Source: Ruminococcus albus 7 = DSM 20455
Lineage (GTDB): Bacteria > Bacillota > Clostridia > Oscillospirales > Ruminococcaceae
DNA length: 32,000 nt
Reading direction: 5' to 3'
Assembly: GCF_000179635.2 (NCBI RefSeq)
Contig: NC_014824.1
Location: 300,001 to 332,000, forward strand
The translations under genes were made by a program, and so were the position numbers. The notes below the pieces were generated by a model, which saw only the letters and a program-made list of their open reading frames with translations, had not been told where the DNA came from and made no database searches. Shown piece after piece: positions 4,282 through 21,129 of the stretch (position 1 is the first letter of the stretch; each line of letters opens with the position of its first letter).

Positions 4282-4310
4282 TTGCATTATAACTTCATAT
4301 ATGTTATAAT
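4282..4310 (+). promoter_or_regulatory. sigma-70-type promoter upstream of scaffold RNA A1
   Basis: TTGCAT, 17 nt spacer, TATAAT. Confidence 0.5.
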
Positions 4311-4368
4311 GACTATAGAAAATCAATTTCATTGATCAGTAATACAGGGCGAATGATAAGCTCACGTT

Positions 4369-4507
4369 AAAATGCTGGGAGATTCGCACTTTATTTCGGG
4401 CGGCTCGGCGTCCGTAAATCGAGAAGTGCTCGTAAGTCTACAAATCTGTAGCCGAAGTAACTCTCGATAAGGTAAAAGCAATACACATTCAATCCGTGTA
4501 TTCAATT
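4369..4507 (+). ncRNA. structured scaffold RNA, copy A1 (tracrRNA/omega-RNA-like), directly upstream of CRISPR array 1
   Basis: Positions 4379-4526 differ from 13585-13732 by one nucleotide. Helices: GGGCG/CGTCC (4398-4413), ATCGAGA/TCTCGAT (4418-4424 with 4462-4468), CTACA/TGTAG (4438-4451), ATACAC/GTGTAT (4481-4501). The same architecture recurs with compensatory changes at 15853-15975. Confidence 0.6.
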
Positions 4508-4526
4508 TTATTTGTATAATTATGCA

Positions 4527-4824
4527 GATGCAATCTGTACAGGCAGGTAAATTGCGAGCAGCCATATCCTTTATCAGCCGTCCGCCGCATTCGGGGATGC
4601 AATCTGTACAGGCAGGTAAATTGCGAGGTGTAAAAGCCGTCAACATAAAAACCACTACTAGATGCAATCTGTACAGGCAGGTAAATTGCGAGAACAGACG
4701 TACAGTTTCAAGGGCGATTGAGATAGATGCAATCTGTACAGGCAGGTAAATTGCGAGAAGTCATTTGCAACAGAGATTTTATTAAAGTGGAGGATGCAAT
4801 CTGTACAGGCAAGTAAATTACAAA
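4527..4824 (+). CRISPR. mini-CRISPR array 1: 4 identical 32 nt repeats plus 1 degenerate terminal repeat, 4 spacers (37, 33, 33, 35 nt)
   Basis: Repeat GATGCAATCTGTACAGGCAGGTAAATTGCGAG at 4527, 4596, 4661 and 4726. Degenerate copy at 4793-4824. TTTGTATAAT promoter-like element at 4511-4520 immediately upstream. Confidence 0.9.
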
Positions 4825-4854
4825 AAACGAATTAAAAATTTTCCATCGAAAACC

Positions 4855-4883
4855 TTGACAGGGCCTACTTTATGATGTATAAT
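4855..4883 (+). promoter_or_regulatory. consensus sigma-70 promoter with no obvious ORF
   Basis: TTGACA, 17 nt spacer, TATAAT exactly. Followed by hairpin CTTGttaATAAGAAG...CGTCTTATctttCAAG (about 4907-4944) and a T-run near 4963-4972. Confidence 0.5.
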
Positions 4884-5010
4884 ATTATTAAAGTCAAATT
4901 AACTTGTTAATAAGAAGTACCGTTCGTCTTATCTTTCAAGTGTCATTTGGCTTTTATTTTTTTGCAATCTTTTCGGCTTCAGAAGTCTTCATATTATAAT
5001 AGTATCATAA

Positions 5011-5068: not shown

Positions 5069-5151
5069 CTTTTTTTATTGTAGTAAATTTTCTCCTATAA
5101 TAAAAATACAACATTCAAACAAATGGTAAGAAAAAGAAAGGAAATGTAAAG

Positions 5152-6264
5152 ATGAACAAATTCGGAAAGATCGTATCCTCGCTGACAGCACTGATGATAT
5201 TGGGGAGTACATTCACAGTAAATGCAGGCGCTGAAACTTTTTATACAAAAGGGGATATAAACAACAGCGGCACAGTAAATATTACGGATATCATTAAGAT
5301 AGCTTCTCATATAAAAAGCAAAAAAATGCTTAGTGAAGAGCGAAATGATATACTTGTACCGTATACAACACTCTGGGCTGCCGATGTCAACAGGGATGGA
5401 AAACTCAATATAACTGACATCACTACAATAGCGGCTCAAATAAAGAACGTAAAAAGTATTAGTAGCAGCACTAATGCATTTAAAAATGTAAGAAAACTAA
5501 CGACTCCTACCGAAACTGATATTATCGCTAGAGCACTCAGACTTACCGAAGCTAATCTCAAATACTACTCACCTAATGAGCCCAGAAAATATGATTTCAC
5601 AAAAGGAAACGACAAAGCTGAAAAAATCATCCTTAAAGAAGGAATAGACTGTTCGGGTATAATAAATTATGCTCTGGGTACACTTGGAATAGAAACAGAA
5701 GGTCTTCGTGGATCAAGCAACACTAATGCTGCACAATTTGGATATACTCCGGCAGCAACAGGTGACTGGCTCAATAAATATAACGTAATAAAGCCTGTAA
5801 AGAATGCTTATTGGATCGTTGACGGAACAAAGAAACCGATGAAAGTGCTGAAAAACGGTGTTTCTACCTCAAAACAGAAGTATTATCAGTACGGGAAGAA
5901 TAATGATATAATTCCTGTGGGTTCTATTGTCGTTGCCTTTGCTGAAGATAATAAAGGAAACCGCATGGCTAATGCAGATCATATGTGGCTGTATCTGGGC
6001 GAATACAACAATGCAAATGAAGTTAGAAAATACATAGCTTCACTGACAGATAAGGCTCCTGGGGATATTATGACCAGGATAGGCTCACAGAAGATAGGAT
6101 ATAATAGCAACAACAGCGATAATGACGGAAAACACTGGAGACTTGAAAGCACGGGTACTTGGCACGGTTTTGATAACTTCACCGGACCGCAGATAAATAA
6201 TGACCTTTGTAATAACACAAAAACACAGTATCTGATCTATGTTTTTGCCCCGCCCACTTTTTGA
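5152..6264 (+). CDS. secreted dockerin-containing NlpC/P60-family peptidase
   Basis: Signal peptide. Two dockerin repeats (GDINNSGTVNITDIIKIASHIK, ADVNRDGKLNITDITTIAAQIK). NlpC/P60-type GIDCSGIINYALG Cys motif and ADHMWLYLG His motif. Confidence 0.8.
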   Translation: MNKFGKIVSSLTALMILGSTFTVNAGAETFYTKGDINNSGTVNITDIIKIASHIKSKKMLSEERNDILVPYTTLWAADVNRDGKLNITDITTIAAQIKNVKSISSSTNAFKNVRKLTTPTETDIIARALRLTEANLKYYSPNEPRKYDFTKGNDKAEKIILKEGIDCSGIINYALGTLGIETEGLRGSSNTNAAQFGYTPAATGDWLNKYNVIKPVKNAYWIVDGTKKPMKVLKNGVSTSKQKYYQYGKNNDIIPVGSIVVAFAEDNKGNRMANADHMWLYLGEYNNANEVRKYIASLTDKAPGDIMTRIGSQKIGYNSNNSDNDGKHWRLESTGTWHGFDNFTGPQINNDLCNNTKTQYLIYVFAPPTF

Positions 6265-6439: not shown

Positions 6440-7461
6440 CATGGTTATCCCTTTAACACACCACAGATAATTTACAATGCTGTCCAAATAAACAGACCTC
6501 AAAACTCAGAAAATATAGTATAATAGTGACAGAAACCGAAGGGAGCTGTCGCTATGTCAAAAAGATTTCCGAAACCTGAGATCACACTTGATGGGATATA
6601 CTCAAAGTTCGCAGATGAAAGCTTTTGCAAGGATTTTCTGCTTGATATCCGCTTTGAAAAGGGTTTTGCCTGCCCGTTTTGCGGTGGCTCTGAGTACCGC
6701 AGGATAAGGTCACGCCATCTGCTGCGATGCAAGTTCTGTAAAGCAGATATATCCGCCACAAACGGAACTTTTATGCACAGAACACATATTCCGCTCAGAC
6801 TGTGGATAGTCACCGCATTCCTCATTATGAGCAACAAATGCAGCGTTTCTGCTGTTACGCTGATGAGGTCTTTGGGGGTGACCTACAAGACTGCATGGTA
6901 CATCCTTCATCGCATCAGAAAAGCTATGAAATGCCGTGAAGAACGCTATTTGCTTGACGGGATCGTTGAACTTGATGACACGTATCTCGGTGCTCCGACT
7001 CACGGTAAAAAGCGTGGCAGAGGAACTGAAAAAGTCAAGATGATAGTAGCTTTGTCAAAGAACGCAGCAGGAAATCCCGAGTACGTTAAAATGAGCGATG
7101 TGCCGAATTTAAAGGGTATAACTGTTGGTAGATTTGCCAGGGATAATATCCGCGCAGGCTCGAAGATCGAGAGTGATAATGCTCGAAGTTACAAGAAACC
7201 GTTGGCACAGAAATACTTCCATGTTTTTGAAACATATGATCCGACAAGCGGTCAGCTGAACTGGATGCATAAAGTTATATCAAACTTCAAAGCAATGATC
7301 ATGGGAACTTACCACGGAAACGAAAAGATCCACACAGCGTTATATGCTGCCGAATACTGCTACAAATTCAACCGTCGTAAGCTGGGAAACAGTGCGTATT
7401 TAAGGCTTTTGGCTGCTTTGGTGCAGTGATCTTACTTGTGGTGTGTTAAAGGGATAACCAT
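6440..7461 (+). mobile_element. IS1595-family insertion sequence with target-site duplication
   Basis: 24 bp terminal inverted repeats ATGGTTATCCCTTTAACACACCAC (6441-6464; reverse complement at 7438-7461). Flanked by direct repeat AATATTCAT (6431-6439 and 7462-7470). Confidence 0.85.
6554..7429 (+). CDS. IS1595-family (ISXO2-like) DDE transposase
   Basis: N-terminal zinc-ribbon CPFCGG...CKFC, then IPLRLWIVTAFLIMSNK and VELDDTYLG, as in IS1595 transposases. Confidence 0.8.
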   Translation: MSKRFPKPEITLDGIYSKFADESFCKDFLLDIRFEKGFACPFCGGSEYRRIRSRHLLRCKFCKADISATNGTFMHRTHIPLRLWIVTAFLIMSNKCSVSAVTLMRSLGVTYKTAWYILHRIRKAMKCREERYLLDGIVELDDTYLGAPTHGKKRGRGTEKVKMIVALSKNAAGNPEYVKMSDVPNLKGITVGRFARDNIRAGSKIESDNARSYKKPLAQKYFHVFETYDPTSGQLNWMHKVISNFKAMIMGTYHGNEKIHTALYAAEYCYKFNRRKLGNSAYLRLLAALVQ

Positions 7462-9285: not shown

Positions 9286-9303
9286 ATAAGACCTGTCTTT
9301 TAC

Positions 9304-9602: not shown

Positions 9603-11552
9603 GTGAATATAAACATAAAGTCAAAAAGAATAATTGCAGGTGTAATGGCACTTTCAATCGTATCTTCTGGTGCAATTGCATCTGAGTCAAGCGTGATAGG
9701 CAGATTAATTTTATTAAATTCGCTCTCTGCAAGTGCCGGTACTGTTTATGGTGACTGGGAATATGAAGTAACCGGAGACCACACTGCAAAGCTAGTAAAG
9801 TATACCGGCAGCGATGCAGAAATTAGTATCCCTCAGGGCATTGACGGTCATTCGATAACAGAACTTGGTGAAAATCTGTTCAGTAATAATACTAATATCA
9901 AGTCTGTAAAGATCCCCAGAGGTATCCAGAGCATACCCGGTTACTGTTTCTCAAATGCTTCAAATCTGGAATCGGTGGTAATGCCTCTCGGCGTAACAAA
10001 AATCGAGCGCGGGGCTTTTATGAATGCAAAGAGCCTCACATCAATAGCGCTGCCTCTTTCTGTTGATACCATTGAAAGCTCTGCATTTACCGGCTCGGGA
10101 ATAACTTCCATTAACATGCGGGATGTTAATGAGTTCGGCAAAAGAATTTTTACAGACTGTAAAAACCTTAAAGATGTGGTGCTTCCCGATGGCATTACAA
10201 TAATTCCCGAAAGTACATTTGAAAACTGCATCGGCATAGAGTCCATCATCCTTCCTGATGACCTGATCACTATTGAAAAGAACGCTTTCAAAGGCTGCAC
10301 AAACCTTACAGAGATAAACGCACCCGATTCGTTGACGACTATAAAAAATTCTGCTTTCATGAATTGCTCAAAGCTTAAAAAAACTCCTTGTTCAGAATCA
10401 ACGGTTTCAATTGAATTCGCTGCATTTAGAAACTGCACAGGCCTTGAATCTGTATCATTCTCAAACTCACCTACTTCGATAGGATCGTATGCTTTTGCAG
10501 GCTGCGAAAAGCTTGAATATATCTCCATTCCCGACTCAGTAGAGAAGATTGATTCAGATGCTTTCAGCGAATGTAAAGGTATCAGGTCGATAGATCTTGA
10601 TGTTAATTCAGCTACTAAATTCGGCGGATACTGTTTCAAAGGCTGTTCTTCAGTAGAAAATATAAATGTTTCCGATTTTGACATTCTGGCAGGATTGTTC
10701 GACAAAAGAACATTTTCAGGCTGCAAAGAGCTACGTACAATAAACAATGAAAGTCCCGTTATTCTTAACGGCGATAACACTGAGCCTGAGTTTACAGAAA
10801 AGTACAGAAGTGTTATAATAGAGAATTTTGATGCCATTGACGACAGTGAGCTGGGTTTCTTCAATGACTACCTTGAAGCAGAAGTAAAGTACGTTGTATC
10901 CACAAATATAACCGATGATATGTCCGATATGGAGAAGATAAAAACTCTTCATGATTGGCTCTGTAACAAGGTATTCTATAAATATATCAAGAAAAACAGC
11001 AAGTATACTCCTGATACCAGCAATTATACTCAGGTGGATTCGTCTGCATTTATCAGAAATTCAACTGTATGCGCAGGCTATGCCAAAGCACTTACACTTT
11101 TGCTCAATGAATCTGGTGTAGAAGCATATCTTCTTGTAAATTTCAGCGAACATGCATGGTGTATGGTTAGAGTTGGAGACCATTATTTTCATCTTGATGC
11201 AACACATGATGATTCAGGCTCTGATCCAAACGGTACCATAGGTTATGATCACTTCCTTATCTCGGATACCGATGTAAAAAAATGCTCTTCAGGTCATTCG
11301 AGCTGGGCGATCGATGCGCCTACAAGCCGATATAAATACACTATTCCCGACGAAATCCCCAAATGCCTCTATTCGGTAGGAGATGTAAATAAGGATGGTG
11401 TCATCAACGATGATGATGCCGACCTTATCTGGTATTACTGCAACGGCGATATCGGCTCCATAGACCTTGTTCTCGCAGATACAAACTTCGACGGCAAAGT
11501 TGACTGGGATGATTACCTGGCAGCGCTCAAACGCAAATTGCCCCGAGGATAA
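9603..11552 (+). CDS. secreted leucine-rich-repeat (BspA-type) protein with transglutaminase-like cysteine peptidase core and C-terminal dockerin
   Basis: GTG start after tAAGGAGtaatttaacc; signal peptide. Repeated ...I.IP..V..I...AF..C..L... units. VCAGYAKALTLLL...HAWCMVRVGDHYFHLDATHDD (Cys-His-Asp). Dockerin GDVNKDGVINDDDADL / ADTNFDGKVDWDDY. Confidence 0.8.
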   Translation: MNINIKSKRIIAGVMALSIVSSGAIASESSVIGRLILLNSLSASAGTVYGDWEYEVTGDHTAKLVKYTGSDAEISIPQGIDGHSITELGENLFSNNTNIKSVKIPRGIQSIPGYCFSNASNLESVVMPLGVTKIERGAFMNAKSLTSIALPLSVDTIESSAFTGSGITSINMRDVNEFGKRIFTDCKNLKDVVLPDGITIIPESTFENCIGIESIILPDDLITIEKNAFKGCTNLTEINAPDSLTTIKNSAFMNCSKLKKTPCSESTVSIEFAAFRNCTGLESVSFSNSPTSIGSYAFAGCEKLEYISIPDSVEKIDSDAFSECKGIRSIDLDVNSATKFGGYCFKGCSSVENINVSDFDILAGLFDKRTFSGCKELRTINNESPVILNGDNTEPEFTEKYRSVIIENFDAIDDSELGFFNDYLEAEVKYVVSTNITDDMSDMEKIKTLHDWLCNKVFYKYIKKNSKYTPDTSNYTQVDSSAFIRNSTVCAGYAKALTLLLNESGVEAYLLVNFSEHAWCMVRVGDHYFHLDATHDDSGSDPNGTIGYDHFLISDTDVKKCSSGHSSWAIDAPTSRYKYTIPDEIPKCLYSVGDVNKDGVINDDDADLIWYYCNGDIGSIDLVLADTNFDGKVDWDDYLAALKRKLPRG

Positions 11553-11828: not shown

Positions 11829-12350
11829 ATGGGTTCAGTAATTGAATTAAACGAATGCCCTAAATGTAGTTTTGAGGAAATGAGCTGCGAATATTGGTAC
11901 AGAAGCGATGAGTACAGTGAGTTGTGTCCAAAATGCGGATATTTCAGAAAGAAATTCCTGAAAAGAGATGATAACAGGGAGCCTATAATGCTAACTGAAG
12001 ATATCAGGCGTGAAGATGTAGTCGTTCTTAAGAATAACAAATGGGTATCTCCGGAAAAAGATGAAGATCTTTCAGACTATCCTACAAGTAATTTTGCCGT
12101 AATAATGTCAGATGAAATAATGCGTTACCCTTCTTTTGCAAGAATGGATAAAGATGGAACTAAAGTGACGTATCCAGATTATATAACTGAAACCGGTGGA
12201 GGATGCGGAGCTGTTCATGTAAAATACTCCAACAATCTTGAACGGATAATATCGCTCGGGGAAAAAGGAGACTCTGAACGGATCAAAAAAGCAGTATATG
12301 AAGAGGATACAACAAAAGATATAGTATCTATAGAGATCACTTGCCCTTGA
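11829..12350 (+). CDS. hypothetical zinc-ribbon protein (173 aa)
   Basis: RBS aacGGAGGaataaagacATG; N-terminal CPKC...CPKCG. Confidence 0.7.
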   Translation: MGSVIELNECPKCSFEEMSCEYWYRSDEYSELCPKCGYFRKKFLKRDDNREPIMLTEDIRREDVVVLKNNKWVSPEKDEDLSDYPTSNFAVIMSDEIMRYPSFARMDKDGTKVTYPDYITETGGGCGAVHVKYSNNLERIISLGEKGDSERIKKAVYEEDTTKDIVSIEITCP

Positions 12351-12367
12351 TTATAGCAATACAAAAC

Positions 12368-12391
12368 GTCTTTCTTCGGAAAGGCTTTTTT
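12368..12391 (+). terminator. intrinsic terminator, conserved family
   Basis: GTCTTTCttcgGAAAGGC followed by TTTTTT. Confidence 0.6.
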
Positions 12392-12476
12392 GTTGTATGG
12401 AAAATCTGTAAGATACGACAAGCGTAATTTTATTTACGCCGTAAAAACGGTAGCTGAACTTTACAAATCACTTGAT

Positions 12477-12881
12477 ATGATGCAGTCTATAGGAATAATG
12501 GTAGAGGGGGCCAAAGAAGGTGTTGGTGCCTGCATTTGGAAATCTATAACCAGTTCTACCAATATAGCTCTTTTACTTATGAATCACAGTATAGGGGATG
12601 ATTTGGCTAATGAGGTGTTTCTGGATTTTGTCGAACGGTACATTAAAAATAATATGATAGACAAGGATATTTCGGCTTTTTACGCAACATACAAAAATTT
12701 CGGCAATAATGCTGCGATGGTCAAGCATGAATTGGAAAGACTTAATTCACGTTATGACTATTATTGTGATGATTGTCCTACCAGAAGAAATGGTGAAGAA
12801 TGTGATATTGATTGCCAAAGCAAGAAAGAAAGTCTTTTAAAACGAATTAAGCAGCTGCGTAGAGTGGAAAGCAATCTATAA
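12477..12881 (+). CDS. hypothetical protein; start uncertain
   Basis: The ORF is open from 12390, but that stretch overlaps the terminator. The first in-frame ATG is at 12477 and has no clear RBS. Confidence 0.4.
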   Translation: MMQSIGIMVEGAKEGVGACIWKSITSSTNIALLLMNHSIGDDLANEVFLDFVERYIKNNMIDKDISAFYATYKNFGNNAAMVKHELERLNSRYDYYCDDCPTRRNGEECDIDCQSKKESLLKRIKQLRRVESNL

Positions 12882-12900
12882 AAGACAGGGGAAATTAATT

Positions 12901-13416
12901 ATGAGTTACCATGTTTGGTCTGTAGACGGATACGGTTTTGATGTTTCAAATACAATAAATAATCTTACACTTGAAAAATGGTCACTGTTAAAAGAGAATA
13001 TTCGGCTTTTCTGGGAAGAAAAAAAGCCTTACAGTGATGAAGATTATCCCGAAGCGAAAAATTTTTTTAATATTCCTGTTGATGTGAATGATATTAAGCA
13101 GGATATTCAAAACGCCAGAGAGCTGTTCAGTGAATACGAAAGTCCATTTTATTGTTTATATGGGTTTGATGATCTTGTCGCTGAAATTTTTGTATGGCTA
13201 TGGCAAAAGAATGGGCATATTGAAGATTTAGTGGAAATAGTTATTGATGAGTTTACTGATAGTCATACATACTGGCTTTTAGGTATGGTGTATCCATGGC
13301 GTAAAGTTGAAAAATTCGATTCTAAAGAAGACTGCCGAAATGCGATTATTAAATCAATGAAAGGATTTGTAGAGGCAGGGAATGTAAATTTTGAATCCAT
13401 TGAACAGGGAGGATGA
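12901..13416 (+). CDS. hypothetical protein (171 aa)
   Basis: ORF track; purine-rich stretch gacAGGGGaaattaattATG. Confidence 0.65.
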   Translation: MSYHVWSVDGYGFDVSNTINNLTLEKWSLLKENIRLFWEEKKPYSDEDYPEAKNFFNIPVDVNDIKQDIQNARELFSEYESPFYCLYGFDDLVAEIFVWLWQKNGHIEDLVEIVIDEFTDSHTYWLLGMVYPWRKVEKFDSKEDCRNAIIKSMKGFVEAGNVNFESIEQGG

Positions 13417-13443
13417 ATCCTTCCTGCCATGATCTGTCCTGTA

Positions 13444-13477
13444 AAACATCTCTCTTTTTTGGAGGGATGTTTTTTTA
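13444..13477 (+). terminator. intrinsic terminator, conserved family
   Basis: AAACATCTCTCttttttgGAGGGATGTTTTTTT. Confidence 0.75.
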
Positions 13478-13506
13478 TTCCTTTTTACTATTAGAAAATA
13501 TTTCAC

Positions 13507-13535
13507 TTGAATTATAGATGTATTTGTGTTATTAT
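13507..13535 (+). promoter_or_regulatory. sigma-70-type promoter upstream of scaffold RNA A2
   Basis: TTGAAT, 17 nt spacer, TATTAT. Confidence 0.45.
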
Positions 13536-13574
13536 AAATACAGGAAAACTCGTTGCGAATGGCAAGCTTACATA

Positions 13575-13713
13575 AAAATGCCAAGAGATTCGCACTTTAT
13601 TTCGGGCGGCTCGGCGTCCGTAAATCGAGAAGTGCTCGTAAGTCTACAAATCTGTAGCCGAAGTAACTCTCGATAAGGTAAAAACAATACACATTCAATC
13701 CGTGTATTCAATT
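13575..13713 (+). ncRNA. structured scaffold RNA, copy A2, directly upstream of CRISPR array 2
   Basis: Positions 13585-13732 equal 4379-4526 except A13684 versus G4478. Confidence 0.6.
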
Positions 13714-13732
13714 TTATTTGTATAATTATGCA

Positions 13733-13900
13733 GATGCAATCTGCACTACGCAAGTGAATTGCGAGTTCGGCGTTGCTGCTTGATGAATCGGGCACTATCG
13801 ATGCAATCTGCACTACGCAAGTGAATTGCGAGGTATATTAATTTGTACAAAAGCAGTCGAACACTTTGTTGCAATCTGTACTACGCAAGTGAATTGCGAG
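13733..13900 (+). CRISPR. mini-CRISPR array 2: 3 repeats of 33 nt, 2 spacers (34 and 35 nt)
   Basis: Repeat GATGCAATCTGCACTACGCAAGTGAATTGCGAG at 13733 and 13800. Variant with 2 substitutions at 13868. Confidence 0.8.
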
Positions 13901-13966
13901 TGATTATCTTCATACTTTTCCATTCAAAAATATGCTTACAAAAATGATCACAAAATAATCTTTATA

Positions 13967-13991
13967 GACAGCTTAACGCCCTAAAATCGAG
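13967..13991 (+). repeat. isolated copy of the scaffold 5' hairpin module (copy E)
   Basis: GACAGCTTAACGCCCTAAAATCGAG, compare GGGCGACTTAACGTCCTAAAATCGAG at 17469. Preceded by AAAATGATCACAAAATAATCT, which also occurs at 17568-17589. Confidence 0.45.
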
Positions 13992-14124
13992 AAAATATTT
14001 TGCAAATTTATCAACGAGATACTACTTCATTCGTATATGATTTCAAGTGTTTTGAATGTAACGATGGCGGTAAGTGTGAAATCTGTCGTATCAAGCGGTA
14101 AAATGAATATTAAAGGAGTGCGCT

Positions 14125-14745
14125 ATGGCTGTTAAAAAGAAACTCCCTGCCTTAAAAAGGCTCATCAAGAAAATCGAAAAGGTCACGCACGTCCGTCCCG
14201 CTACGGAAGAGGAGCTTGCGGCTTTACAGAAGCTTGCAGGCGGAAAGCTCCCCGAGGAGGCTATGGAATTTTACTCACATTACAGTTTTGAGGGTATTGT
14301 GCGCATTGATGAGTATATTGATCTCTACGGCATTAACGAAATAGTCAGATGGAATACAGACGCTGTACCCGGGTTTATGGTTCTGCCGTTCGGACTTCTG
14401 ACCGTGGCTTCATGGGTAGACGGTGATGCAATCTGCATTGACCTTAACAGCGTTGGTGAAAAGTTTGGGTATGGGGGATGTTACACCACGCAGGTGATTC
14501 GTCAGTGCAGTCATGAACTTTTCAGCGAGGGCGAGGAGATCACCTTCTACAGAAAAGCACTCGGCGGTTTGGTTCGCCTGCCTTATACCCGTGAGAATGT
14601 CGTTGCGCTTTCTCCTTATGTAACCAATGACTTCAGTTATCTTCTCAAACGCCTGAGAGATGGGGAGCTTCGTTATATCGAACTTACCAAAACATTGGAT
14701 GATTACGAGAAAAAACGATTGCAGGAAACTGCTCAGGAAAGTTAA
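14125..14745 (+). CDS. SMI1/KNR4 (SUKH-1)-like protein, putative immunity protein
   Basis: RBS tAAAGGAGtgcgctATG. The N-terminal LPEEAMEFYSHYSFEG region resembles the SMI1_KNR4 signature. The segment is visibly more GC-rich than its flanks. Confidence 0.5.
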   Translation: MAVKKKLPALKRLIKKIEKVTHVRPATEEELAALQKLAGGKLPEEAMEFYSHYSFEGIVRIDEYIDLYGINEIVRWNTDAVPGFMVLPFGLLTVASWVDGDAICIDLNSVGEKFGYGGCYTTQVIRQCSHELFSEGEEITFYRKALGGLVRLPYTRENVVALSPYVTNDFSYLLKRLRDGELRYIELTKTLDDYEKKRLQETAQES

Positions 14746-14752
14746 CATCACA

Positions 14753-14785
14753 AGCCGAATGTTCATCGAGAGCGTTCGGCTTTTG
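14753..14785 (+). terminator. intrinsic terminator
   Basis: AGCCGAAtgttcatcgagagcgTTCGGCT followed by TTT. Confidence 0.7.
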
Positions 14786-15081
14786 GGTAAAAGAACAAAT
14801 AGCTTTATAGCAAAGATATACGGCTGTTTAGATGAATCGTTAGATGCACATACCACAATGGCATACATTAACCGTAAGGCTCTCGGAAACGCTGTGAAAG
14901 CGTTCCTGAGGGCTTTTTGGCGTTGAAACAGACAAATATGGAAAAAGGTTGCGCAACTGATGCGTTATGCAACCTTAATTATGGGAGCGAAATCTTATAT
15001 ATGATTATTGGGCTTTTAACTGTGATATGAAGCTTTTTTATTATTGCAAATTTTCACGTAAAATAAAATTGTAGATGTTAA

Positions 15082-15113
15082 TTGATAACATAGGAGACCA
15101 GACAGATTATTGA
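15082..15113 (+). promoter_or_regulatory. conserved 5' leader hairpin (instance 6)
   Basis: ttgataacaTAGGAGACCAGACagattattga. The stem changes G to A, converting a G-U wobble pair to A-U, so pairing is kept. Confidence 0.55.
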
Positions 15114-15156
15114 TAAATATTCTCAAATAACTATAAAACCAAAAGGAGTAATTGCT

Positions 15157-15414
15157 ATGAAAGGAATAATGCCGGATCATAAAGAATGGAGAAAGAAAAG
15201 ATACAAGATATTCAATGAAAAAATAAACTATTTTAAAGATCATCCCAAATATGAATGGCTGAGGAAATATGCAGATGATGCAATGAACGCAAATGAAGGG
15301 TTTGGTTATCTGATGATAAAAGGAGCAGACTTTATAGAAAGAATTGAAAAAATGCCTCTTGAATATATCAGAGACTGGCTCAACGGAAAAAATAAACTGG
15401 AATGGACAACATAA
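15157..15414 (+). CDS. hypothetical protein (85 aa)
   Basis: RBS aaAAGGAGtaattgctATG. Confidence 0.7.
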   Translation: MKGIMPDHKEWRKKRYKIFNEKINYFKDHPKYEWLRKYADDAMNANEGFGYLMIKGADFIERIEKMPLEYIRDWLNGKNKLEWTT

Positions 15415-15452
15415 AACAGCAAGCAAGAAAAATAACCGATAATTTGTCTTTT

Positions 15453-15482
15453 AAACGTTCCTCACACGAGGGGCGTTTTTTT
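15453..15482 (+). terminator. intrinsic terminator, conserved family
   Basis: AAACGTTCCTCacacGAGGGGCGTTTTTTT. Confidence 0.75.
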
Positions 15483-15591
15483 CATCATACAAGAATAGAA
15501 GATGTTGACTACAATTTGTTTTTTTGATATAATAATCAAGGAAATATTAAAAAGGAAAAATTATCTTCTGTTATAATAGTATAAAACTTGT

Positions 15592-15609
15592 TGTGTCACG
15601 CGGGACACA
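15592..15609. repeat. palindrome family copy P3 (TGTGTCACGCGGGACACA)
   Basis: One mismatch to the consensus. Confidence 0.75.
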
Positions 15610-15697
15610 AATAAAATGTTCCCTATAAAAACCTTTTTTGCAGGGACGTTTTCATCGATAAAGATTTTCTTCTATAATTATCTTAGATCTAAAAATT

Positions 15698-15728
15698 TTG
15701 ATAATCGGAGTCGGAATCAACAGATCAG
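15698..15728 (+). promoter_or_regulatory. leader hairpin instance 7, heading a decapitated cassette
   Basis: ttgataatCGGAGTCggaatcaACAGAtcag after TATAAT (15673-15678). Followed by AAAGGAG RBS and ATG CAC TAT TAA (15753-15764). Confidence 0.5.
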
Positions 15729-15852
15729 TTTACAGTAAAGGAGAAAATTGAAATGCACTATTAATCATCAAAAGAAATCCCGAACTATATAAAATTTTTC
15801 TCAAAAAGAATAACAGCAACAATAAATAACACTGTGATATTCATATTATCCA

Positions 15853-15975
15853 GGGCGGCTTAACGCCCTTAAATCGAAACAATGCGTCGTAAACCGCTAT
15901 ACAGCGTTGATCGTATACTCGATAAGGTAATATCTCAGCAATGAGATCAAAATTATACGCATAAAATCCGCGTAG
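15853..15975 (+). ncRNA. structured scaffold RNA, copy C, upstream of the Cas12f/TnpB-like gene
   Basis: Same helix order as A1/A2 with compensatory changes: GGGCG/CGCCC (15853-15868), ATCGA/TCGAT (15873-77 with 15919-23), CGCT/AGCG (15895-15906), TACGC/GCGTA (15956-15974) with conserved loop A-AATCC. It has one extra hairpin, ATCTCA/TGAGAT (15932-15947). Confidence 0.55.
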
Positions 15976-16072
15976 ACAGTGAACATAACTATATAAGAAT
16001 GTGAGCTGTAAGTTATATAATGATATTGGAGTATTGATGTGTCCTTCAAAAAAATCTTAAGGAGTAATAAAA

Positions 16073-17434
16073 ATGACTAAAGTAGTAAAATTAGCGTTAA
16101 TAAGCAATGTAACCGATAAAGATGGAAACAAAGTTGAATACAATGAATTAAACAGATGCCTATGGGATCTTCAAAAAGAAACCAGGGACCTGAAAAATGC
16201 TGTAGTAAGAGAATGCTGGGAATGGTACGGATTCACCAACGATTATTATAAACTTAACGAAGAATATCCGAATGAAAGAGATTATCTGAAAAAGGCAAAG
16301 TCTGACGGAACGATTAAAGATTATGCTTTGGATGGATTTATATATGCTAAATACAGCAAAAAATACAATCTTCATTCAGGAAACTATTCACAAACATTAA
16401 GAGACGCCTGCGGAAGCTTTAAAAATAATCTCAAAGAAATATTAAGAGGAGATAAGAGCATTTTAAGTTATAGAGCCGATCAGCCTCTGGATATCAAGAA
16501 GACCTGTATCGGACTGGAATACGATAAGGACACAAACACTTATTATGTAACTCTTGTTCTGCTAAACAAAAATGGCGTCAAGCATTATAATATCAGTGAT
16601 TTCAGATTTAAGATAACCGTAAAGGATAATTCAACAAGAACGATCCTTGAACGTTGTTTTGATGGAGTATACGGCATAAGCGCAAGTAAGCTTATCTGGA
16701 ACAGAAAGAAGAGTCAGTGGTTTTTAAATCTCTGCTATTCATTCGATAAAGTAGAGGTAAAGGAACTTGACAAGAAAAAGATACTGGGAGTAAATCTCGG
16801 TGTTTACTACCCTTTATACGCTTCAATATCCGGAGAAAAGGATAGACTAGCGATCTCTGGTGATGAAATAATCGAATTCAGGAAACGAATAGAGGCTAGA
16901 AGGACAGCTCTGAAGAAACAGGCTGCTGTGTGCGGAGATGGAAGGATAGGTCATGGTTATAAAACCAGGATGAAACCATTACAGAATGTCTCTGATAAGA
17001 TAGCAAATTTCAGAGATACCTTTAATCACAAAGCAAGTAAAAAGCTAATTGATTTTGCAATCAAAAATGATTGTGGGATCATCCAGCTCGAAAATCTTAA
17101 AGGAGTAACAAAAAATTCAGAAGGATTCCTCAAAAACTGGTCTTTTTATGATCTTCAGAGTAAGATCGAAAATAAGGCGAAAGAAAGAGGGATAAAAGTT
17201 GTTTATATTGAACCTGCTTACACAAGCCTGAGATGCTCAAAATGCGGATGTATACACAAAGATAATCATCCGACCAGAGAGCAGTTTATCTGTCAAGAGT
17301 GTGGGTATAGGGTTCTGCATGATTACAATGCCAGCCAGAACATTGCTGTCAAGGATATAGACAAGATAATAAAAGCTGAACTTGAAAAGACGGAACCGGA
17401 AAAGAAAACAGAGGAAGAAAAGCCCGAGAAGTAA
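16073..17434 (+). CDS. miniature Cas12f/TnpB-like RuvC protein (453 aa) with Asn at the RuvC-I catalytic position
   Basis: RBS tAAGGAGtaataaaaATG. RuvC-I context KKILGVNLGVYYP (N241, AAT 16793-16795, where the family has GxDxG). RuvC-II IIQLENLKG (E340). Zinc finger CSKCG...CQECG. RuvC-III HDYNASQNIA (D417). GDGRIGHGYKTRMKPL resembles the Gly/Arg/Lys-rich linker I recall from Cas12f. Confidence 0.8.
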   Translation: MTKVVKLALISNVTDKDGNKVEYNELNRCLWDLQKETRDLKNAVVRECWEWYGFTNDYYKLNEEYPNERDYLKKAKSDGTIKDYALDGFIYAKYSKKYNLHSGNYSQTLRDACGSFKNNLKEILRGDKSILSYRADQPLDIKKTCIGLEYDKDTNTYYVTLVLLNKNGVKHYNISDFRFKITVKDNSTRTILERCFDGVYGISASKLIWNRKKSQWFLNLCYSFDKVEVKELDKKKILGVNLGVYYPLYASISGEKDRLAISGDEIIEFRKRIEARRTALKKQAAVCGDGRIGHGYKTRMKPLQNVSDKIANFRDTFNHKASKKLIDFAIKNDCGIIQLENLKGVTKNSEGFLKNWSFYDLQSKIENKAKERGIKVVYIEPAYTSLRCSKCGCIHKDNHPTREQFICQECGYRVLHDYNASQNIAVKDIDKIIKAELEKTEPEKKTEEEKPEK

Positions 17435-17468
17435 GTTCATGTAAAATAATGTGATGATAATATTTTTA

Positions 17469-17589
17469 GGGCGACTTAACGTCCTAAAATCGAGGCGATT
17501 AATCCTGATTGCTGACTAAAGGCTGGCAGGCAATAAAGCTGCGTTATCCGTTGTATGCAGAAGAATAAAAACGATCACAAAATTAATCT
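17469..17589 (+). ncRNA. partial or diverged scaffold copy D plus repeat-like remnant, 3' of the effector gene
   Basis: GGGCGacttaaCGTCCTAAAATCGAGG starts 35 nt after the stop codon, preceded by TGATGATAAT (-10-like). Contains GGCAGGCAATAAAGCTGCG, which resembles repeat 1 (GGCAGGTAAATTGCGAG). Ends with AAAACGATCACAAAATTAATCT, shared with the trailer of array 2. Confidence 0.4.
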
Positions 17590-17597
17590 GAGAAAAA

Positions 17598-17626
17598 GGC
17601 TTTGTTTTAGTGACAGAGCCTTTTTT
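17598..17626 (+). terminator. intrinsic terminator
   Basis: GGCTTTGttttagtgaCAGAGCC followed by TTTTTT. Confidence 0.7.
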
Positions 17627-17641
17627 GGCAGCTGTATGTTT

Positions 17642-17659
17642 TGTGTCACGCGTGACACA
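17642..17659. repeat. palindrome family copy P4 (perfect TGTGTCACGCGTGACACA)
   Basis: Perfect 18 bp palindrome, 20 bp with the flanking T/A. Lies 33 nt upstream of TATAAT 17692-17697. Confidence 0.85.
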
Positions 17660-17713
17660 AGCGAAAGATATTATCGATTTCACTTTTCTTGTATAATAAC
17701 AACATAGATGTTA

Positions 17714-17745
17714 TTGATAACTGGCGAAGATAAATAAGTTATCGA
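17714..17745 (+). promoter_or_regulatory. leader hairpin instance 8
   Basis: ttGATAACTggcgaagataaataAGTTATCga. Perfect 7 bp stem; loop is a variant (GGCGAAGATAAA). Confidence 0.5.
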
Positions 17746-17780
17746 AGACACTAAATGATTATTATATGGAGGAATTCAAA

Positions 17781-18581
17781 ATGAAAGAATTTAAAAATGC
17801 AAACAATGGAACATCTGAGAAAAACAACATAAACGGCACTATCATTTCAGATATAATTGTAACTATCTTTTCAAGCAAGAAGGAGAATAGTTCGTTAAAT
17901 CAAGAAATGATAAAAAGGAGAGCGGAGATAATTGAAGATATCGGTATTCACAGTAAGCCTTCAGGAGGAGATAACTTCTGGCTTTTCTATGAAAATTATA
18001 TTTTTTCAAAGAAAGAACACGACAAAATAAAGGCTATAGTAGATAAGTACTCATCTGAACATTATTTTAATGAACTGGTGCATATAGATATGAACTGTCT
18101 TTATGATTATACCGAAAGTGGCACTATCACTCTGAGTACAAGAGTCAGAATATCTGATCTGTGCTATGATATGGATACCTGGTGTGCAGGAAGTCTTGAA
18201 AACGTTCTTCCGGGAACATATAACTGTTTTGTTCAGAAAACAGGAGAGGGAAGAGTTGCAGGGATCAAAATAGTTCACGAAGAATACGATCCTGAAGAAT
18301 ATGAACCTGATGAACTTCAGGATATTGACGTAGGAGTGGATTCGGGTGAATGTGGAATTTACGATGAAGAATATTTCGCAAAAAACTGTAAGGACCAAGA
18401 CTGGTATGAATCCACATACGTGCTGAGAGATGGAATGCCTCTAGATGATAAAGCATTTATAAGCAGTTCTGGATACGGCGATGGAAGTTACGAATGCTTT
18501 GTTGCAAGAAATACCGAAGGAAAGATCGTAGCTATAAAGATATTATTCATTGACTTTGAGAACGATGAGGAGGAAGAATGA
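17781..18581 (+). CDS. hypothetical protein, DUF4241-like C-terminal half (tentative)
   Basis: ATG at 17781 after GGAGGaattcaaa. Contains DVGVDSGECGIYDEEYF and SSSGYGDGSYECFV, motifs I associate with DUF4241. Confidence 0.6.
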   Translation: MKEFKNANNGTSEKNNINGTIISDIIVTIFSSKKENSSLNQEMIKRRAEIIEDIGIHSKPSGGDNFWLFYENYIFSKKEHDKIKAIVDKYSSEHYFNELVHIDMNCLYDYTESGTITLSTRVRISDLCYDMDTWCAGSLENVLPGTYNCFVQKTGEGRVAGIKIVHEEYDPEEYEPDELQDIDVGVDSGECGIYDEEYFAKNCKDQDWYESTYVLRDGMPLDDKAFISSSGYGDGSYECFVARNTEGKIVAIKILFIDFENDEEEE

Positions 18582-19054
18582 TGATCTATAAGGAAGAAGT
18601 AAGGGACTTATTTACAACTTCAGATGATTACATCCTCGTCCATTGCATAAGTTCTGACTTTGCTTTGGGCGCAGGGATCGCAAAGAAATTCGCTCAGATG
18701 GGCGTGAAAGAAAAACTTGTGAAAAACTATCCGAAGAACTGGGAAGGTCATGGATATATGATACCTGTCGGTCTTAAGGATAAAATGGTAGCAAATCTCA
18801 TCACTAAAGAAAAGTATTGGATGAAACCCACCTATGATACACTCAGGGAAAGTCTTGAGAATTTAAAGAATTGGGTGATTGATGAAAATTATTTGCCTTG
18901 GGGAGATATACGGCCTATAGGAATTCAACGGAAGTTGGCTATGCCACTAATCGGCTGCGGATTGGATAAACTAAAATGGGATAATGTCAGACAGATCATA
19001 AAAGAAGTATTTGAGAACACTGATATAGAGATCCTTGTTTGTCTGTACAAATAG
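18578..19054 (+). CDS. macrodomain protein, TARG1/OARD1- and DarG-like ADP-ribose hydrolase fold
   Basis: HCISSDFALGAGIAKKF, LITKEKYWMKPTYDTLRESLENLK and MPLIGCGLDKLKWDNVRQIIKEVF match, block for block, the human TARG1 sequence as I recall it, including the catalytic Lys and Asp positions. ATGA overlap with the upstream gene. Confidence 0.75.
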   Translation: MMIYKEEVRDLFTTSDDYILVHCISSDFALGAGIAKKFAQMGVKEKLVKNYPKNWEGHGYMIPVGLKDKMVANLITKEKYWMKPTYDTLRESLENLKNWVIDENYLPWGDIRPIGIQRKLAMPLIGCGLDKLKWDNVRQIIKEVFENTDIEILVCLYK

Positions 19055-19117
19055 TCGCTTAAATTTCCTTAAGAACAAACAATAAATATGCTATAGAAAT
19101 GTATGGAGAAGTTCATT

Positions 19118-19246
19118 ATGAAAGAATTTAATGTAACAATTATCGAAACGCTTAAAAGGACTGTAACAGTTGAAGCTGAGGACTTATCAGGAGTTGAGTT
19201 TGAGACTCAGGAAGATAATACTGAAGCAGAAATAGAAACCGGATAA
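19118..19246 (+). CDS. small hypothetical protein (42 aa)
   Basis: ATG at 19118 after GGAGAagttcatt: MKEFNVTIIETLKRTVTVEAEDLSGVEFETQEDNTEAEIETG. Below the ORF-track size cutoff. Possibly a shortened DpnD/PcfM-like protein. Confidence 0.4.
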   Translation: MKEFNVTIIETLKRTVTVEAEDLSGVEFETQEDNTEAEIETG

Positions 19247-19280
19247 GGTGCGCAAACTGATAGCTTATAGAAACAGTGTG

Positions 19281-19310
19281 GCGTCTCTCTTTTGTGGGGA
19301 GACGCTTTTT
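19281..19310 (+). terminator. intrinsic terminator, conserved family
   Basis: GCGTCTCTCttttgtgGGGAGACGC followed by TTTTT. Confidence 0.75.
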
Positions 19311-19315
19311 ATGTT

Positions 19316-19333
19316 TGTGTCACACGTGACACA
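19316..19333. repeat. palindrome family copy P5 (TGTGTCACACGTGACACA)
   Basis: One central substitution; directly after the terminator. Confidence 0.8.
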
Positions 19334-19438
19334 TTATAACTGCTGCAACGAGGAAAAATAATTAAAGGTATTAGAAATGCAGCGACAGGGCCTTTTTGTC
19401 GTATTAAGTTTTCGTATATAATATAGATAGAATGCATT

Positions 19439-19470
19439 ATCGATAATCTGGGGTCAGACAGGTTATAGAT
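19439..19470 (+). promoter_or_regulatory. conserved 5' leader hairpin (instance 9)
   Basis: atcgataatCTGGGGTCAGACAggttatagat after TATAAT (19417-19422). Confidence 0.55.
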
Positions 19471-19522
19471 GCTAAAATTATAGATATAAACGTAAAAATA
19501 GCAGAAAAAAAAGGGTGATATT

Positions 19523-19729
19523 ATGATATACTATTGGGTAGCAGTAAACCGCAATTGCAAATTGGCAGGTGGAGTAAGAAACATAATTAAATCGGAAACG
19601 AACAAAGAAGAAGTACTAAAGAAAGATTATTATGAGGACTATAATAAATATCCAGGTGATCACTTCGTGCTTTTTAATACACTTAGGAAAGCACAGGAAT
19701 ATGCAGATAAGCTATCAGAAGAAAGCTAA
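19523..19729 (+). CDS. hypothetical protein (68 aa)
   Basis: ORF track; purine-rich aaaaGGGTGatattATG. Confidence 0.6.
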   Translation: MIYYWVAVNRNCKLAGGVRNIIKSETNKEEVLKKDYYEDYNKYPGDHFVLFNTLRKAQEYADKLSEES

Positions 19730-19964
19730 TGGAGAAACAGACAAGAAGAACTTAACAGAATTAGAAAAACTAAAAAGAAAAGACAATGATCTCTATTTCA
19801 GTAACGGAAAACCGAAAAAAATGCACATGATGTGCCGTGATCCTTCCTATATCAGAGAAATAATTCACATTAATGGAAGGTATATTTTGGATTGGTGCTG
19901 TGCCGGAGGCAGGTGTCCTTTCTATTCTACGGGCTGCGATGACAAAGGCAGAGAATGGGAGTAA
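19701..19964 (+). CDS. hypothetical Cys-rich protein; start uncertain
   Basis: ORF open from 19632. ATG at 19701 is the candidate start but has a weak RBS. C-terminal part contains CC...C...C. Confidence 0.4.
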   Translation: MQISYQKKANGETDKKNLTELEKLKRKDNDLYFSNGKPKKMHMMCRDPSYIREIIHINGRYILDWCCAGGRCPFYSTGCDDKGREWE

Positions 19965-20260
19965 TAATTGTGGATATACTTAAGATAATTGGTACAACAG
20001 AAGACGAGTTGGAAATGGCAATGGCTCTTTCAGTAGTGAATCAGTATCTTGCTAACGAAACAGAGCAGGGTACAAAGGTCGGATTCGAGTATAACGGACA
20101 GTTTATCAGTAATATTTTTTTTGATGAAACAGGTAGAACAGACCTTTCCTTAGAAGAAGCTGTATCGAAGTACGGAATAAAGGAAGTTAAAAAGTTCTAT
20201 CATGATGTTCTGAATGATTATGATGTATGGCTGGAAGCTGAAAGACAAGCTCTAGATTAA
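19955..20260 (+). CDS. hypothetical protein (101 aa)
   Basis: ORF track; overlaps the upstream ORF by 10 nt. Confidence 0.55.
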   Translation: MGVIIVDILKIIGTTEDELEMAMALSVVNQYLANETEQGTKVGFEYNGQFISNIFFDETGRTDLSLEEAVSKYGIKEVKKFYHDVLNDYDVWLEAERQALD

Positions 20261-20284
20261 ACAAAATTACAAGAAGAATATACT

Positions 20285-20419
20285 ATGGCAAATTATAATT
20301 TCAGGCTGCTTAATGATTGTTCATCGGGTGAGTATGAGTTAAACGAGACAGGTGCTTGGATCAATGAAGCAAGCGGCAGTAAAGACTGGGACGGCTATAT
20401 TTGCGAAGTGCTTATATAA
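20285..20419 (+). CDS. small hypothetical protein (44 aa)
   Basis: ATG at 20285, TAA at 20417-20419: MANYNFRLLNDCSSGEYELNETGAWINEASGSKDWDGYICEVLI. Fills an otherwise empty gap in the operon. Confidence 0.4.
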   Translation: MANYNFRLLNDCSSGEYELNETGAWINEASGSKDWDGYICEVLI

Positions 20420-20467
20420 TAAATGCAAGCTCAAAACACTATATGAGACAATACAGAGGGATCAATC

Positions 20468-20788
20468 ATGGCAGAAGCAGAACGTAACATACTTGTTATA
20501 ATAAGAGGCATACCAAGTGTGCATCTTAAAGGTCATGTATCTCGACACTTCATTATAGGTGGGATGCGTTATGAGTATACGACCGGGACACAGGAATGCT
20601 CTGAAGAAGAGTTTATTGCTGCTTGTGAATCTAAAGGCTGGAAATGTATGATAGAAAATAACATCATCTACATTCAAGGAAAACACCATAAGGTGTTCAT
20701 TGAACCTGAAGGAATGGTATTCATTGATGGCTATCCTTATTCTATAGAAGATCAGATATACGAACAAAACAAAAAATTTAGGTATTAA
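20468..20788 (+). CDS. hypothetical protein (106 aa)
   Basis: ORF track; acAGAGGGatcaatcATG. Confidence 0.6.
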   Translation: MAEAERNILVIIRGIPSVHLKGHVSRHFIIGGMRYEYTTGTQECSEEEFIAACESKGWKCMIENNIIYIQGKHHKVFIEPEGMVFIDGYPYSIEDQIYEQNKKFRY

Positions 20789-20801
20789 ATAAGGAGTAAT
20801 T

Positions 20802-20996
20802 ATGCTGGATAAAAAGACAGAAGATAAAATAGAAACTCATCTTTTGAGTGCCGCAAAACTGCTCAGGAAGTTACAATTTGATGACTGGGCTTCCGATTTA
20901 GAAGCAGCTTCACACGCAATTCAGAAGGATTTTGAGGAAGAAGATAACGAATATACAAGAAAATTCGGCTTCAGTCACAGGGAAGTCGAATTATAG
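20802..20996 (+). CDS. hypothetical protein (64 aa)
   Basis: RBS tAAGGAGtaattATG. Confidence 0.65.
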   Translation: MLDKKTEDKIETHLLSAAKLLRKLQFDDWASDLEAASHAIQKDFEEEDNEYTRKFGFSHREVEL

Positions 20997-21018
20997 GTCA
21001 ATATCCATATTAGTTAAG

Positions 21019-21049
21019 AAACGTCTCTCCTCGGAGGGGCGTTTCTTTT
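21019..21049 (+). terminator. intrinsic terminator, conserved family
   Basis: AAACGTCTCTCctcgGAGGGGCGTTTCTTTT. Confidence 0.75.
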
Positions 21050-21129
21050 ATACTATGGAATATGCATTGGCAGGAAAAAAACGATTATATAATCTGTTGT
21101 TTTCTGCTATAATCAATAAAGAAACATCA

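Follow-up and report, generated by a model that had tools for sequence, protein, structure and literature searches.

CRISPR loci of type V-F1 (Cas12f1, formerly V-U3) are laid out as an effector gene, a trans-activating CRISPR RNA (tracrRNA) region and an array with spacers of 33–39 nt, use a 5′ protospacer adjacent motif (PAM), and have no adaptation genes (Karvelis 2020, PMC7229846). The AsCas12f effector requires a tracrRNA and a CRISPR RNA (crRNA), joined through two repeat:anti-repeat (R:AR) contacts, and the substitution D225A abolishes its cleavage activity. Here we describe a relative of these systems on a 32,000 nt stretch of Ruminococcus albus 7 = DSM 20455 (assembly GCF_000179635.2, contig NC_014824.1, positions 300,001 to 332,000 of the forward strand), which is referred to as the window and whose first letter is position 1. 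A short unit at 4282–4824, designated module 1, is almost certainly, judging by its sequence, a Cas12f1-family tracrRNA followed by a CRISPR array. On balance, we read it as a self-contained guide-RNA unit belonging to a type V-F1 system, which may use a Cas12f1 protein with Asn (N241) at the first catalytic position and may provide defence by binding alone. The window probably lies on a R. albus megaplasmid, since a protein of the window is recorded on a 420,706-bp sequence (R. albus 7 accession).

Comparison with Described Systems

The locus resembles the V-F1 systems of AsCas12f1 and RuCas12f1 (PMC7229846; structures 8J12 and 7WJU) in its effector family (E 2e-95 to AsCas12f), in having the tracrRNA region directly upstream of the array with two separate repeat:anti-repeat contacts, and in its repeats of about 32 nt, spacers of 33–37 nt, lack of adaptation genes and putative T-rich 5′ PAM (TTC, seen beside the targets of related arrays). 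It departs from the canonical arrangement in that tracrRNA and array stand apart from the gene (2.2 and 11.5 kb away in the window), duplicated and self-promoted; in that the nearest effector carries a conserved Asn in place of the first catalytic Asp (RuvC-I); in that the scaffolds of the modules and the native scaffold of the gene are of different sublineages; and in the multiplication of modules that accompanies RuvC loss in the family.

The Cas12m and Cas12c proteins keep the RuvC site for crRNA processing and, to our knowledge, use no tracrRNA. If N241 abolishes cleavage, the locus would share with Cas12m (PMC11013384) and Cas12c a PAM-dependent DNA binding that blocks phages or plasmids, although the protein is of a different subtype and its binding-only activity is a prediction. 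Natural inactivation of RuvC, together with several guide-RNA units per locus, is also found in dCas12f-sigmaE, in dCas12f near Bacteroidota arrays (PMC13472631) and in TldR. However, the dCas12f-sigmaE and TldR proteins are C-terminally truncated, whereas the window effector is full length; their guide is one chimeric RNA with no tracrRNA, whereas the RNA of the window is a tracrRNA plus array; they lie beside rpoE or helix-turn-helix genes, whereas Pfam scans of the window's open reading frames (ORFs) detected no sigma factor; and their guides are conserved and match host promoters, whereas module spacers vary between strains, some of them matching phage, and those of the window have no self-match within it. 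That catalytic sites are altered in Cas12f branches, and that guide units are duplicated in the sigma-linked dead Cas12f systems, which are from Bacteroidota, is already on record (PMC13472631; PMC10691335); no mention of Ruminococcus, Firmicutes or Clostridia was found in the dCas12f paper (PMC13472631).

The first unit of module 1 (scaffold, repeat 1 and spacer 1) is similar to the omega RNA of TnpB (IS200/IS605), in which a scaffold is followed by the guide. An omega RNA overlaps the 3′ end of tnpB and has one guide, at the end of the transposon. The module stands alone between unrelated ORFs, its repeat-spacer units recur, and neither transposon ends nor a preceding tnpB gene adjoin it. 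A short array on a probable plasmid, without adaptation genes, also recalls the mini-arrays and solitary repeat units carried on mobile elements, but unlike bare mini-arrays that borrow host machinery, module 1 has a full tracrRNA of its own and an effector of the family nearby.

Promoter, Repeats and Spacers of Module 1

The features of module 1 are as follows:

4283–4311, + strand: promoter-like TTGCAT-17-TATAAT with a TGn extended −10, read from the sequence
4343–4501, + strand: scaffold core of tracrRNA type (nhmmer homology, RNAalifold, pair counts)
4346–4354 with 4382–4390, + strand: stem 1, which covaries in relatives
4397–4402 with 4409–4414, + strand: stem 2 (RNAalifold consensus)
4404–4407, + strand: stem-2 loop CUCG, anti-repeat for CGAG, a pseudoknot of R:AR-2 type
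4419–4423 with 4463–4467, + strand: stem 3 (RNAalifold consensus)
4429–4431 with 4454–4456, + strand: inner 3-bp helix (RNAalifold consensus)
4438–4442 with 4447–4451, and 4481–4486 with 4496–4501, + strand: two hairpins (RNAalifold consensus)
4502–4526, + strand: anti-repeat tail of R:AR-1 type, abutting repeat 1 and including TTTGTATAAT
4527, 4596, 4661 and 4726 (starts), + strand: four copies of the 32-nt repeat GATGCAATCTGTACAGGCAGGTAAATTGCGAG, 0 mismatches
4559–4595, 4628–4660, 4693–4725 and 4758–4792, + strand: spacers 1–4, of 37, 33, 33 and 35 nt
4793–4824, + strand: degenerate repeat 5, which ends the CRISPR array (4527–4824)

An earlier note on this DNA had described four identical 32 nt repeats with a degenerate terminal copy fixing the + orientation, and had given the same spacer lengths. 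Both were recovered exactly, and the number of GATGCAATCTGTACAGGCAGGTAAATTGCGAG copies expected by chance is 0 (100 shuffles). Spacer 1 had been called GC-rich for the locus, and at 59% G+C it stands well above the whole window (36%). A search of the window that tolerated as many as 4 mismatches within a spacer's first 20 nt, or 9 along its full length, found no protospacer for any spacer, in agreement with the same note. Rfam (at gathering thresholds) and a tRNA scan gave no match in the window, and module 1 had no blastn match among GenBank phages or PLSDB plasmids.

The cassette-type promoter proposed for the module is present at 4283–4311. Because its −35 hexamer matches the consensus at only 3/6 positions, the site is missed by a consensus promoter scan; in our own promoter scan it is the best site 5′ of the module 1 scaffold. 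Strong promoters occur at the equivalent position in some of the detached modules of the related loci L008, L080 and L082. The array is separated by 11.5 kb from the Cas12f-type effector ORF (16073–17434), so that the description of module 1 as a detached unit with its own predicted promoter holds.

The Scaffold as a Family tracrRNA

The scaffold of module 1 occupies about 185 nt (4343–4526, + strand; 4340–4526 in the homology comparison) upstream of repeat 1. For comparison, 74 genome loci encoding relatives of the effector were fetched, in most of which arrays of the same repeat family begin 150–250 nt past the cas12f stop codon. The gene-to-array interval of about 40 loci is homologous to the module 1 scaffold (nhmmer, E 5e-22 to 1e-5), and the offset from scaffold start to repeat 1 is 187–189 nt in most of the homologous loci. 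A consensus fold was derived with RNAalifold from alignment A4, which holds 27 scaffold-plus-repeat sequences, and 38 pairs were counted, of which the consensus fold supplied 34 and a pseudoknot added by hand the other 4. Across these sequences, 94.8% of the cells are paired and 24 of the 38 pairs show changes on both sides. The observed pairing and covariation were matched by none of 500 shuffles, and slid controls reached a pairing of 26–50% only. Folding scaffold and repeat together in silico, as the earlier note had advised, yields a covarying consensus structure. Since the scaffold is homologous to cas12f-to-array intervals and has a covarying structure, and since AsCas12f needs a tracrRNA and V-U3 loci place it between gene and array, the module 1 scaffold is identified as the tracrRNA region of the family, which bears out the order of scaffold RNA and then mini-CRISPR array read earlier on the + strand.

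Repeat:Anti-Repeat Contacts

Two contacts join scaffold and repeat. The stem-2 loop CUCG is complementary to CGAG, the last four bases of the repeat (for example, 4555–4558), and loop and repeat 3′ end covary across loci as CUCG-CGAG, CUUA-UAAG, CUUG-CAAG and CUUC-GAAG. The second contact is made by the anti-repeat tail, for which the mean energy of the tail:repeat duplex over 27 loci is −17.4 kcal/mol with the cognate repeat versus −11.8 kcal/mol with non-cognate repeats (a difference of 5.6), the cognate repeat being the best partner of the tail in 11 of the 27 rows. With the tail leading straight into repeat 1, the first unit amounts to a natural single-guide RNA.

Two proposals of the earlier note concern this part of the module. 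The second promoter-like element, TTTGTATAAT, is present at 4511–4520, but it lies inside the anti-repeat tail and its promoter role does not stand; relatives read TTTGTGCA or TTTGTACA at this position, which in them is not a −10 box. The segment AGATTCGCA (4380–4388), suggested as a weak anti-repeat for TGCAATCT of the repeat, is complementary to it as sequence but does not form a conserved pairing, and it was ruled out, as it lies in the 3′ arm of the covarying stem 1. The conserved TTGC that precedes repeat 1 was likewise considered as a partner for GCAA of the repeat and was discarded for want of covariation, because TTGC is unchanged where the repeat begins GATTATA or GAATATA.

Spacer Turnover and Phage Matches

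Three metagenome contigs (L086, L087 and L089) are 93–97% identical to the window around module 1 and carry different spacers. L086 and L087 have a single spacer, sX, while L089 has sX and a second, scaffold-proximal spacer, sY. The latter matches an IMG/VR phage contig (L093) at 33/34 positions within a DNA helicase gene, just after a TTTC flank, and other genes of that contig specify a portal protein, a large terminase and a head protein. Two spacers of L008, a locus with an Asn-type effector, match human-gut phages at 33/33 and 32/33 positions, both just after ATTC. Turnover of the array between strains and the uptake of phage sequence point to defence against phages and other mobile elements, and module 1 is probably a working anti-phage array. 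A role in conflict between mobile elements, which the earlier note considered possible, is plausible because the spacer of a sister strain matches a phage.

The guides of the relatives gave matches at noise level when compared with their own loci (blastn-short), including one partial match in L082 (23/24) that is confined to the PAM-distal part. Two further contigs from the metagenome scan (L085 and L088) were set aside as chance matches to the repeat pattern.

Other arrays of the family show rearrangements. In L080, identical spacers occur in two different modules (5150–5185 and 9885–9920), and in L097 a repeat-spacer unit is duplicated inside one array (5494–5640), which indicates that modules exchange or duplicate content. 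In L089, near 7743 (the counterpart of 4793–4969 in the window), the last repeat of module 1 continues directly into sequence from about window position 4963, by way of a shared GCAATCT; the join looks like a microhomology deletion, one that would have taken out the downstream consensus promoter (4855–4883).

The Effector Gene and RuvC Loss Across the Family

The window encodes one effector of the family:

16073–17434, + strand: Cas12f1-family effector gene, 453 aa; Pfam PF07282 (TNB domain), E 1e-19

Chains of AsCas12f in the PDB match residues 21–435 of this protein (E 2e-95), which fits a family whose effectors have about 400–500 aa, a split RuvC and a TNB/zinc-finger domain. Its RuvC triad is N241-E340-D417 rather than an intact D-E-D, with N241 aligned to the catalytic D225 of AsCas12f (RuvC-I Asp to Asn). 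The protein is otherwise full length, and E340, D417 and the zinc finger are retained. Asn is found at the RuvC-I position in every close relative examined, down to 64% identity, while more distant relatives keep Asp; LHD in place of NAD before the third RuvC residue is likewise conserved within the clade. With Asn at the first catalytic position throughout the clade, DNA binding rather than cleavage would be expected.

RuvC status and module number were tabulated for all loci and compared with a neighbour-joining tree. The RuvC triad has been lost at least 5 times independently (N-E-D twice, H-E-N, T-E-H/F-E-F and Y-E-A). Dispersed scaffold modules, two to six per locus, are present in 15 of the 16 RuvC-mutant loci, whereas more than one module was seen in none of about 52 RuvC-intact loci (Fisher's test 5e-14, for loci that are not phylogenetically independent). 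Loci of the Asn clade lie in contexts that resemble mobile elements, with genes for ParA/ParB, PcfJ, toxins and methylases. In the window, the adjacent layout of gene, tracrRNA and array is absent: the modules lie 11.5 and 2.2 kb upstream of the gene, and a 32-nt scaffold stub follows its stop codon.

The earlier note had placed the array 11.5 kb from "the only candidate effector". The distance is correct, but a second, remote TnpB-like ORF is present at 21832–23157 (− strand, 441 aa), with Asp and Glu at the aligned RuvC-I and RuvC-II positions. It is an unlikely partner, being 22% identical to the Cas12f ORF and having marginal PDB matches. A different pairing of genes is seen in L078, where a shorter cas12f-like ORF with an intact D-E-D (11861–12883; 331 aa by gene call) lies beside an Asn-type gene, and two different scaffold/repeat types are interleaved in that locus.

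Module 2 and Scaffold Remnants

The numbering in the "satellite module 1" of the earlier note is justified, as the window holds at least two such modules, together with pieces of the native-type scaffold:

13507–13900, + strand: module 2, complete with promoter, scaffold and array, 2.2 kb upstream of cas12f
13507–13535, + strand: promoter of module 2, the equivalent of the module 1 site
13549–13732, + strand: scaffold of module 2, whose core is identical in module 1
13733, 13800 and 13868 (starts), + strand: three copies of the 33-nt repeat GATGCAATCTGCACTACGCAAGTGAATTGCGAG
13969–13997, + strand: native-type scaffold fragment GCTTAACGCCCTAAAATCGAG, just past array 2 (weak, nhmmer E 0.022)
15828–15981, + strand: degenerate native-type scaffold with a CUUA loop (nhmmer E 1.4e-10, model positions 32–172)
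17463–17494, + strand: native-type scaffold stub of 32 nt, stem 2 with a CUUA loop (nhmmer E 7.5e-6)

The repeats of the two modules differ in their centre only, where the central hairpin TAC/GTA of module 1 is replaced by CAC/GTG in module 2, apparently through compensatory changes. None of the three native-type remnants has repeats attached. Situated shortly upstream of cas12f, the copy at 15828–15981 has no anti-repeat tail and shares 84% identity with the scaffold behind a 90%-identical gene in R. albus 8 (L044). The stub at 17463–17494 directly follows the cas12f stop codon, at the place where the full scaffold and array of the relatives begin. The sequences GCTTAAC...TAAATCGA at 13971, 15858 and 17474 had been considered as integron attC-like sites, a reading that was discarded because they correspond to scaffold stem 2 and the strand that follows it.

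Which Protein Uses the Guides

The likeliest partner of the modules is the neighbouring N241 Cas12f1, which may defend by binding DNA. In its favour are the conserved Asn at the position of D225, the confinement of multi-module layouts to RuvC-mutant loci, the strong promoters of detached modules elsewhere and the CUCG-type modules within 5 kb of the same N241 gene in a second strain (L097). That the guides are used by this protein, and that it acts without cleavage, we regard as nearly an even matter, and a number of observations count against it. The scaffolds of modules 1 and 2 are 77–82% identical to those of nuclease-intact lineages (L014, L010 and L090), compared with 61–65% (core model positions) or 74–78% (global alignment) for native scaffolds of the Asn clade, and they share the CUCG loop and the CGAG repeat end with the intact lineages. 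The native type of the Asn clade, present in L044, L094, L082 and L083, has a CUUA loop and UAAG repeat ends, and in the window the scaffolds native to the cas12f gene occur in degenerate or truncated form only. Tail:repeat pairing is weak in both modules (−10.0 kcal/mol in module 1 and −8.8 kcal/mol in module 2). The search of phage, plasmid and metagenome-virus collections suggested by the earlier note gave no match for the window's own spacers: the six had none among GenBank phages (E ≤ 10) or, as exact 22-mers, in IMG/VR, and only two chance-level matches, at E = 9, among the plasmids of PLSDB, a collection without R. albus plasmids. Pfam scans of the window ORFs found no adaptation genes, a trait of the mini-array that the same note had pointed out. 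Finally, R. albus GCA_000526775.1 combines an intact chromosomal Cas12f that has a canonical array (L090) with the same N241 gene, which stands on a contig of 387 kb (L097) and is preceded, 4–5 kb upstream, by two modules of CUCG type. With both genes in one genome the modules could serve the intact nuclease.

This last point leads to the most serious alternative, namely that the modules provide additional tracrRNA-array units to a D-E-D Cas12f1 whose gene lies in another part of the genome, with N241 unrelated to them and immunity exerted by ordinary cleavage. The affinity of the scaffolds to intact lineages and the co-occurrence of L090 and L097 speak for it, and a phage-matching spacer with a TTC flank is compatible with classical immunity. 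We nevertheless consider it rather unlikely. The 32-kb window holds no intact Cas12f; the plasmid-borne modules of GCA_000526775.1 are 86–92% identical to the window modules but 81% to the chromosomal scaffold, and so form a subfamily of their own; in two strains the modules have stayed 2–12 kb from the N241 gene although rearrangements have taken place; and across the family, multi-module layouts occur with RuvC-mutant genes only. The modules thus travel with the N241 gene but descend from an intact lineage, and the partner effector is uncertain. A loss of function, by which the modules would be orphan remnants of a vanished Cas12f locus, is improbable: the short array, its degenerate last repeat, the weak tail:repeat pairing, the decayed scaffold fragments close by and the unmatched spacers of the window would fit, but the four repeats do not differ from one another, no scaffold helix is broken, the core is the same in both modules, the promoters are conserved, and the module has been kept in at least 4 strains or contigs with changing spacers, one of them with a near-perfect phage match. 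It is very improbable that N241 Cas12f and its guides regulate host or plasmid genes in the manner of TldR or dCas12f-sigmaE. Nuclease-dead TnpB and Cas12f regulators are known (PMC13472631; PMC10691335) and the first RuvC residue is mutated here in a conserved manner; against this, close strains have entirely different spacers, with matches to phage DNA, no self-target lies within the window, no sigma factor was detected among the ORFs scanned with Pfam, and the effector has no C-terminal truncation.

Returning to defence by the N241 protein, a single transcript would be driven by the promoter at 4283–4311 and would open with the tracrRNA of about 185 nt, whose 3′ anti-repeat tail would run unbroken into repeat 1 of the four-spacer array. 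The first unit would act in cis as a natural single-guide RNA, while later repeat-spacer units, once processed, would pair in trans, the tail with the repeat body and the loop CUCG with the terminal CGAG. The guides would be loaded on a Cas12f1-family protein supplied in trans and directed to DNA with a 5′-TTC flank, the task of the array being defence against phages and other mobile elements. Binding by the N241 protein may then block transcription or replication, as with Cas12m or Cas12c.

Other Features of the Window

An insertion with a transposase of the IS1595 family occupies 6440–7461 (ORF 6554–7429), and is absent from GCA_000621285.1 (L001) and from syntenic metagenome contigs. The palindrome TGTGTCACGCGTGACACAA occurs in six intergenic copies (6269, 15584, 17634, 19308, 23325 and 26908), three of them just upstream of a shared promoter-like sequence ending TTCTTGTATAAT or TTCTTCTATAAT, and one right after the ORF of an IS200-type Y1 transposase (26300–26776). 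These palindromes could be repetitive extragenic palindromic (REP)-like elements or operator sites. Six similar terminator-like hairpins, AAACGTCTCTC...GGGGCGTTTTT, are found at 9301, 12361, 15450, 21016, 24362 and 25597, where they close successive small genes and give the region the look of a string of cassettes; the same hairpin stands behind the arrays in L044 and L094.

Relative to the window, L086 and L089 show a match to 23525–23631 joined in inverted orientation to about 12302, so that an 11-kb segment (about 12302–23631) carrying module 2, cas12f and the TnpB-like ORF is inverted or otherwise rearranged between strains. The ORFs 5152–6264, 9603–11552, 27892–29841, 14125–14745 and 17766–18581 encode three proteins with dockerins, one of them additionally bearing BspA-type leucine-rich repeats and a transglutaminase core, as well as SMI1/KNR4 and DUF4241 proteins, which are typical of immunity-protein islands. 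Most other ORFs of the window have no Pfam match.

Implications

Among the CRISPR effectors widely used for genome editing Cas12f1 is the smallest, and its natural layout has been described mainly as gene, tracrRNA and array. The present locus and its relatives display a recurrent other layout, in which the tracrRNA and array are portable, multiplied and often self-promoted, specifically where the nuclease site is mutated. We tentatively propose, as a generalization still open to doubt, that in gut and rumen Clostridia the Cas12f1 lineages that lost a RuvC catalytic residue (in at least 5 losses) have swapped the gene-adjacent array for dispersed tracrRNA-plus-mini-array modules, some with strong promoters of their own and with arrays that still carry phage-matching spacers beside a TTC flank. 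This would be a miniature, cleavage-independent and multiplexed immunity on plasmid-like or mobile loci, and module 1 would be an example that the N241 protein uses. Should the modules serve a nuclease-active paralogue, module 1 would be an ordinary Cas12f array in an unusual place.

The covariation data chart the tracrRNA–crRNA contacts for the family as a whole and are of use in designing guide RNAs. If the Asn variant binds without cutting, the locus would represent a natural phage defence by a dead miniature Cas12f and a ready-made compact scaffold for CRISPR interference. It would also be an extant intermediate in the passage from CRISPR immunity to the recently described RNA-guided regulators.

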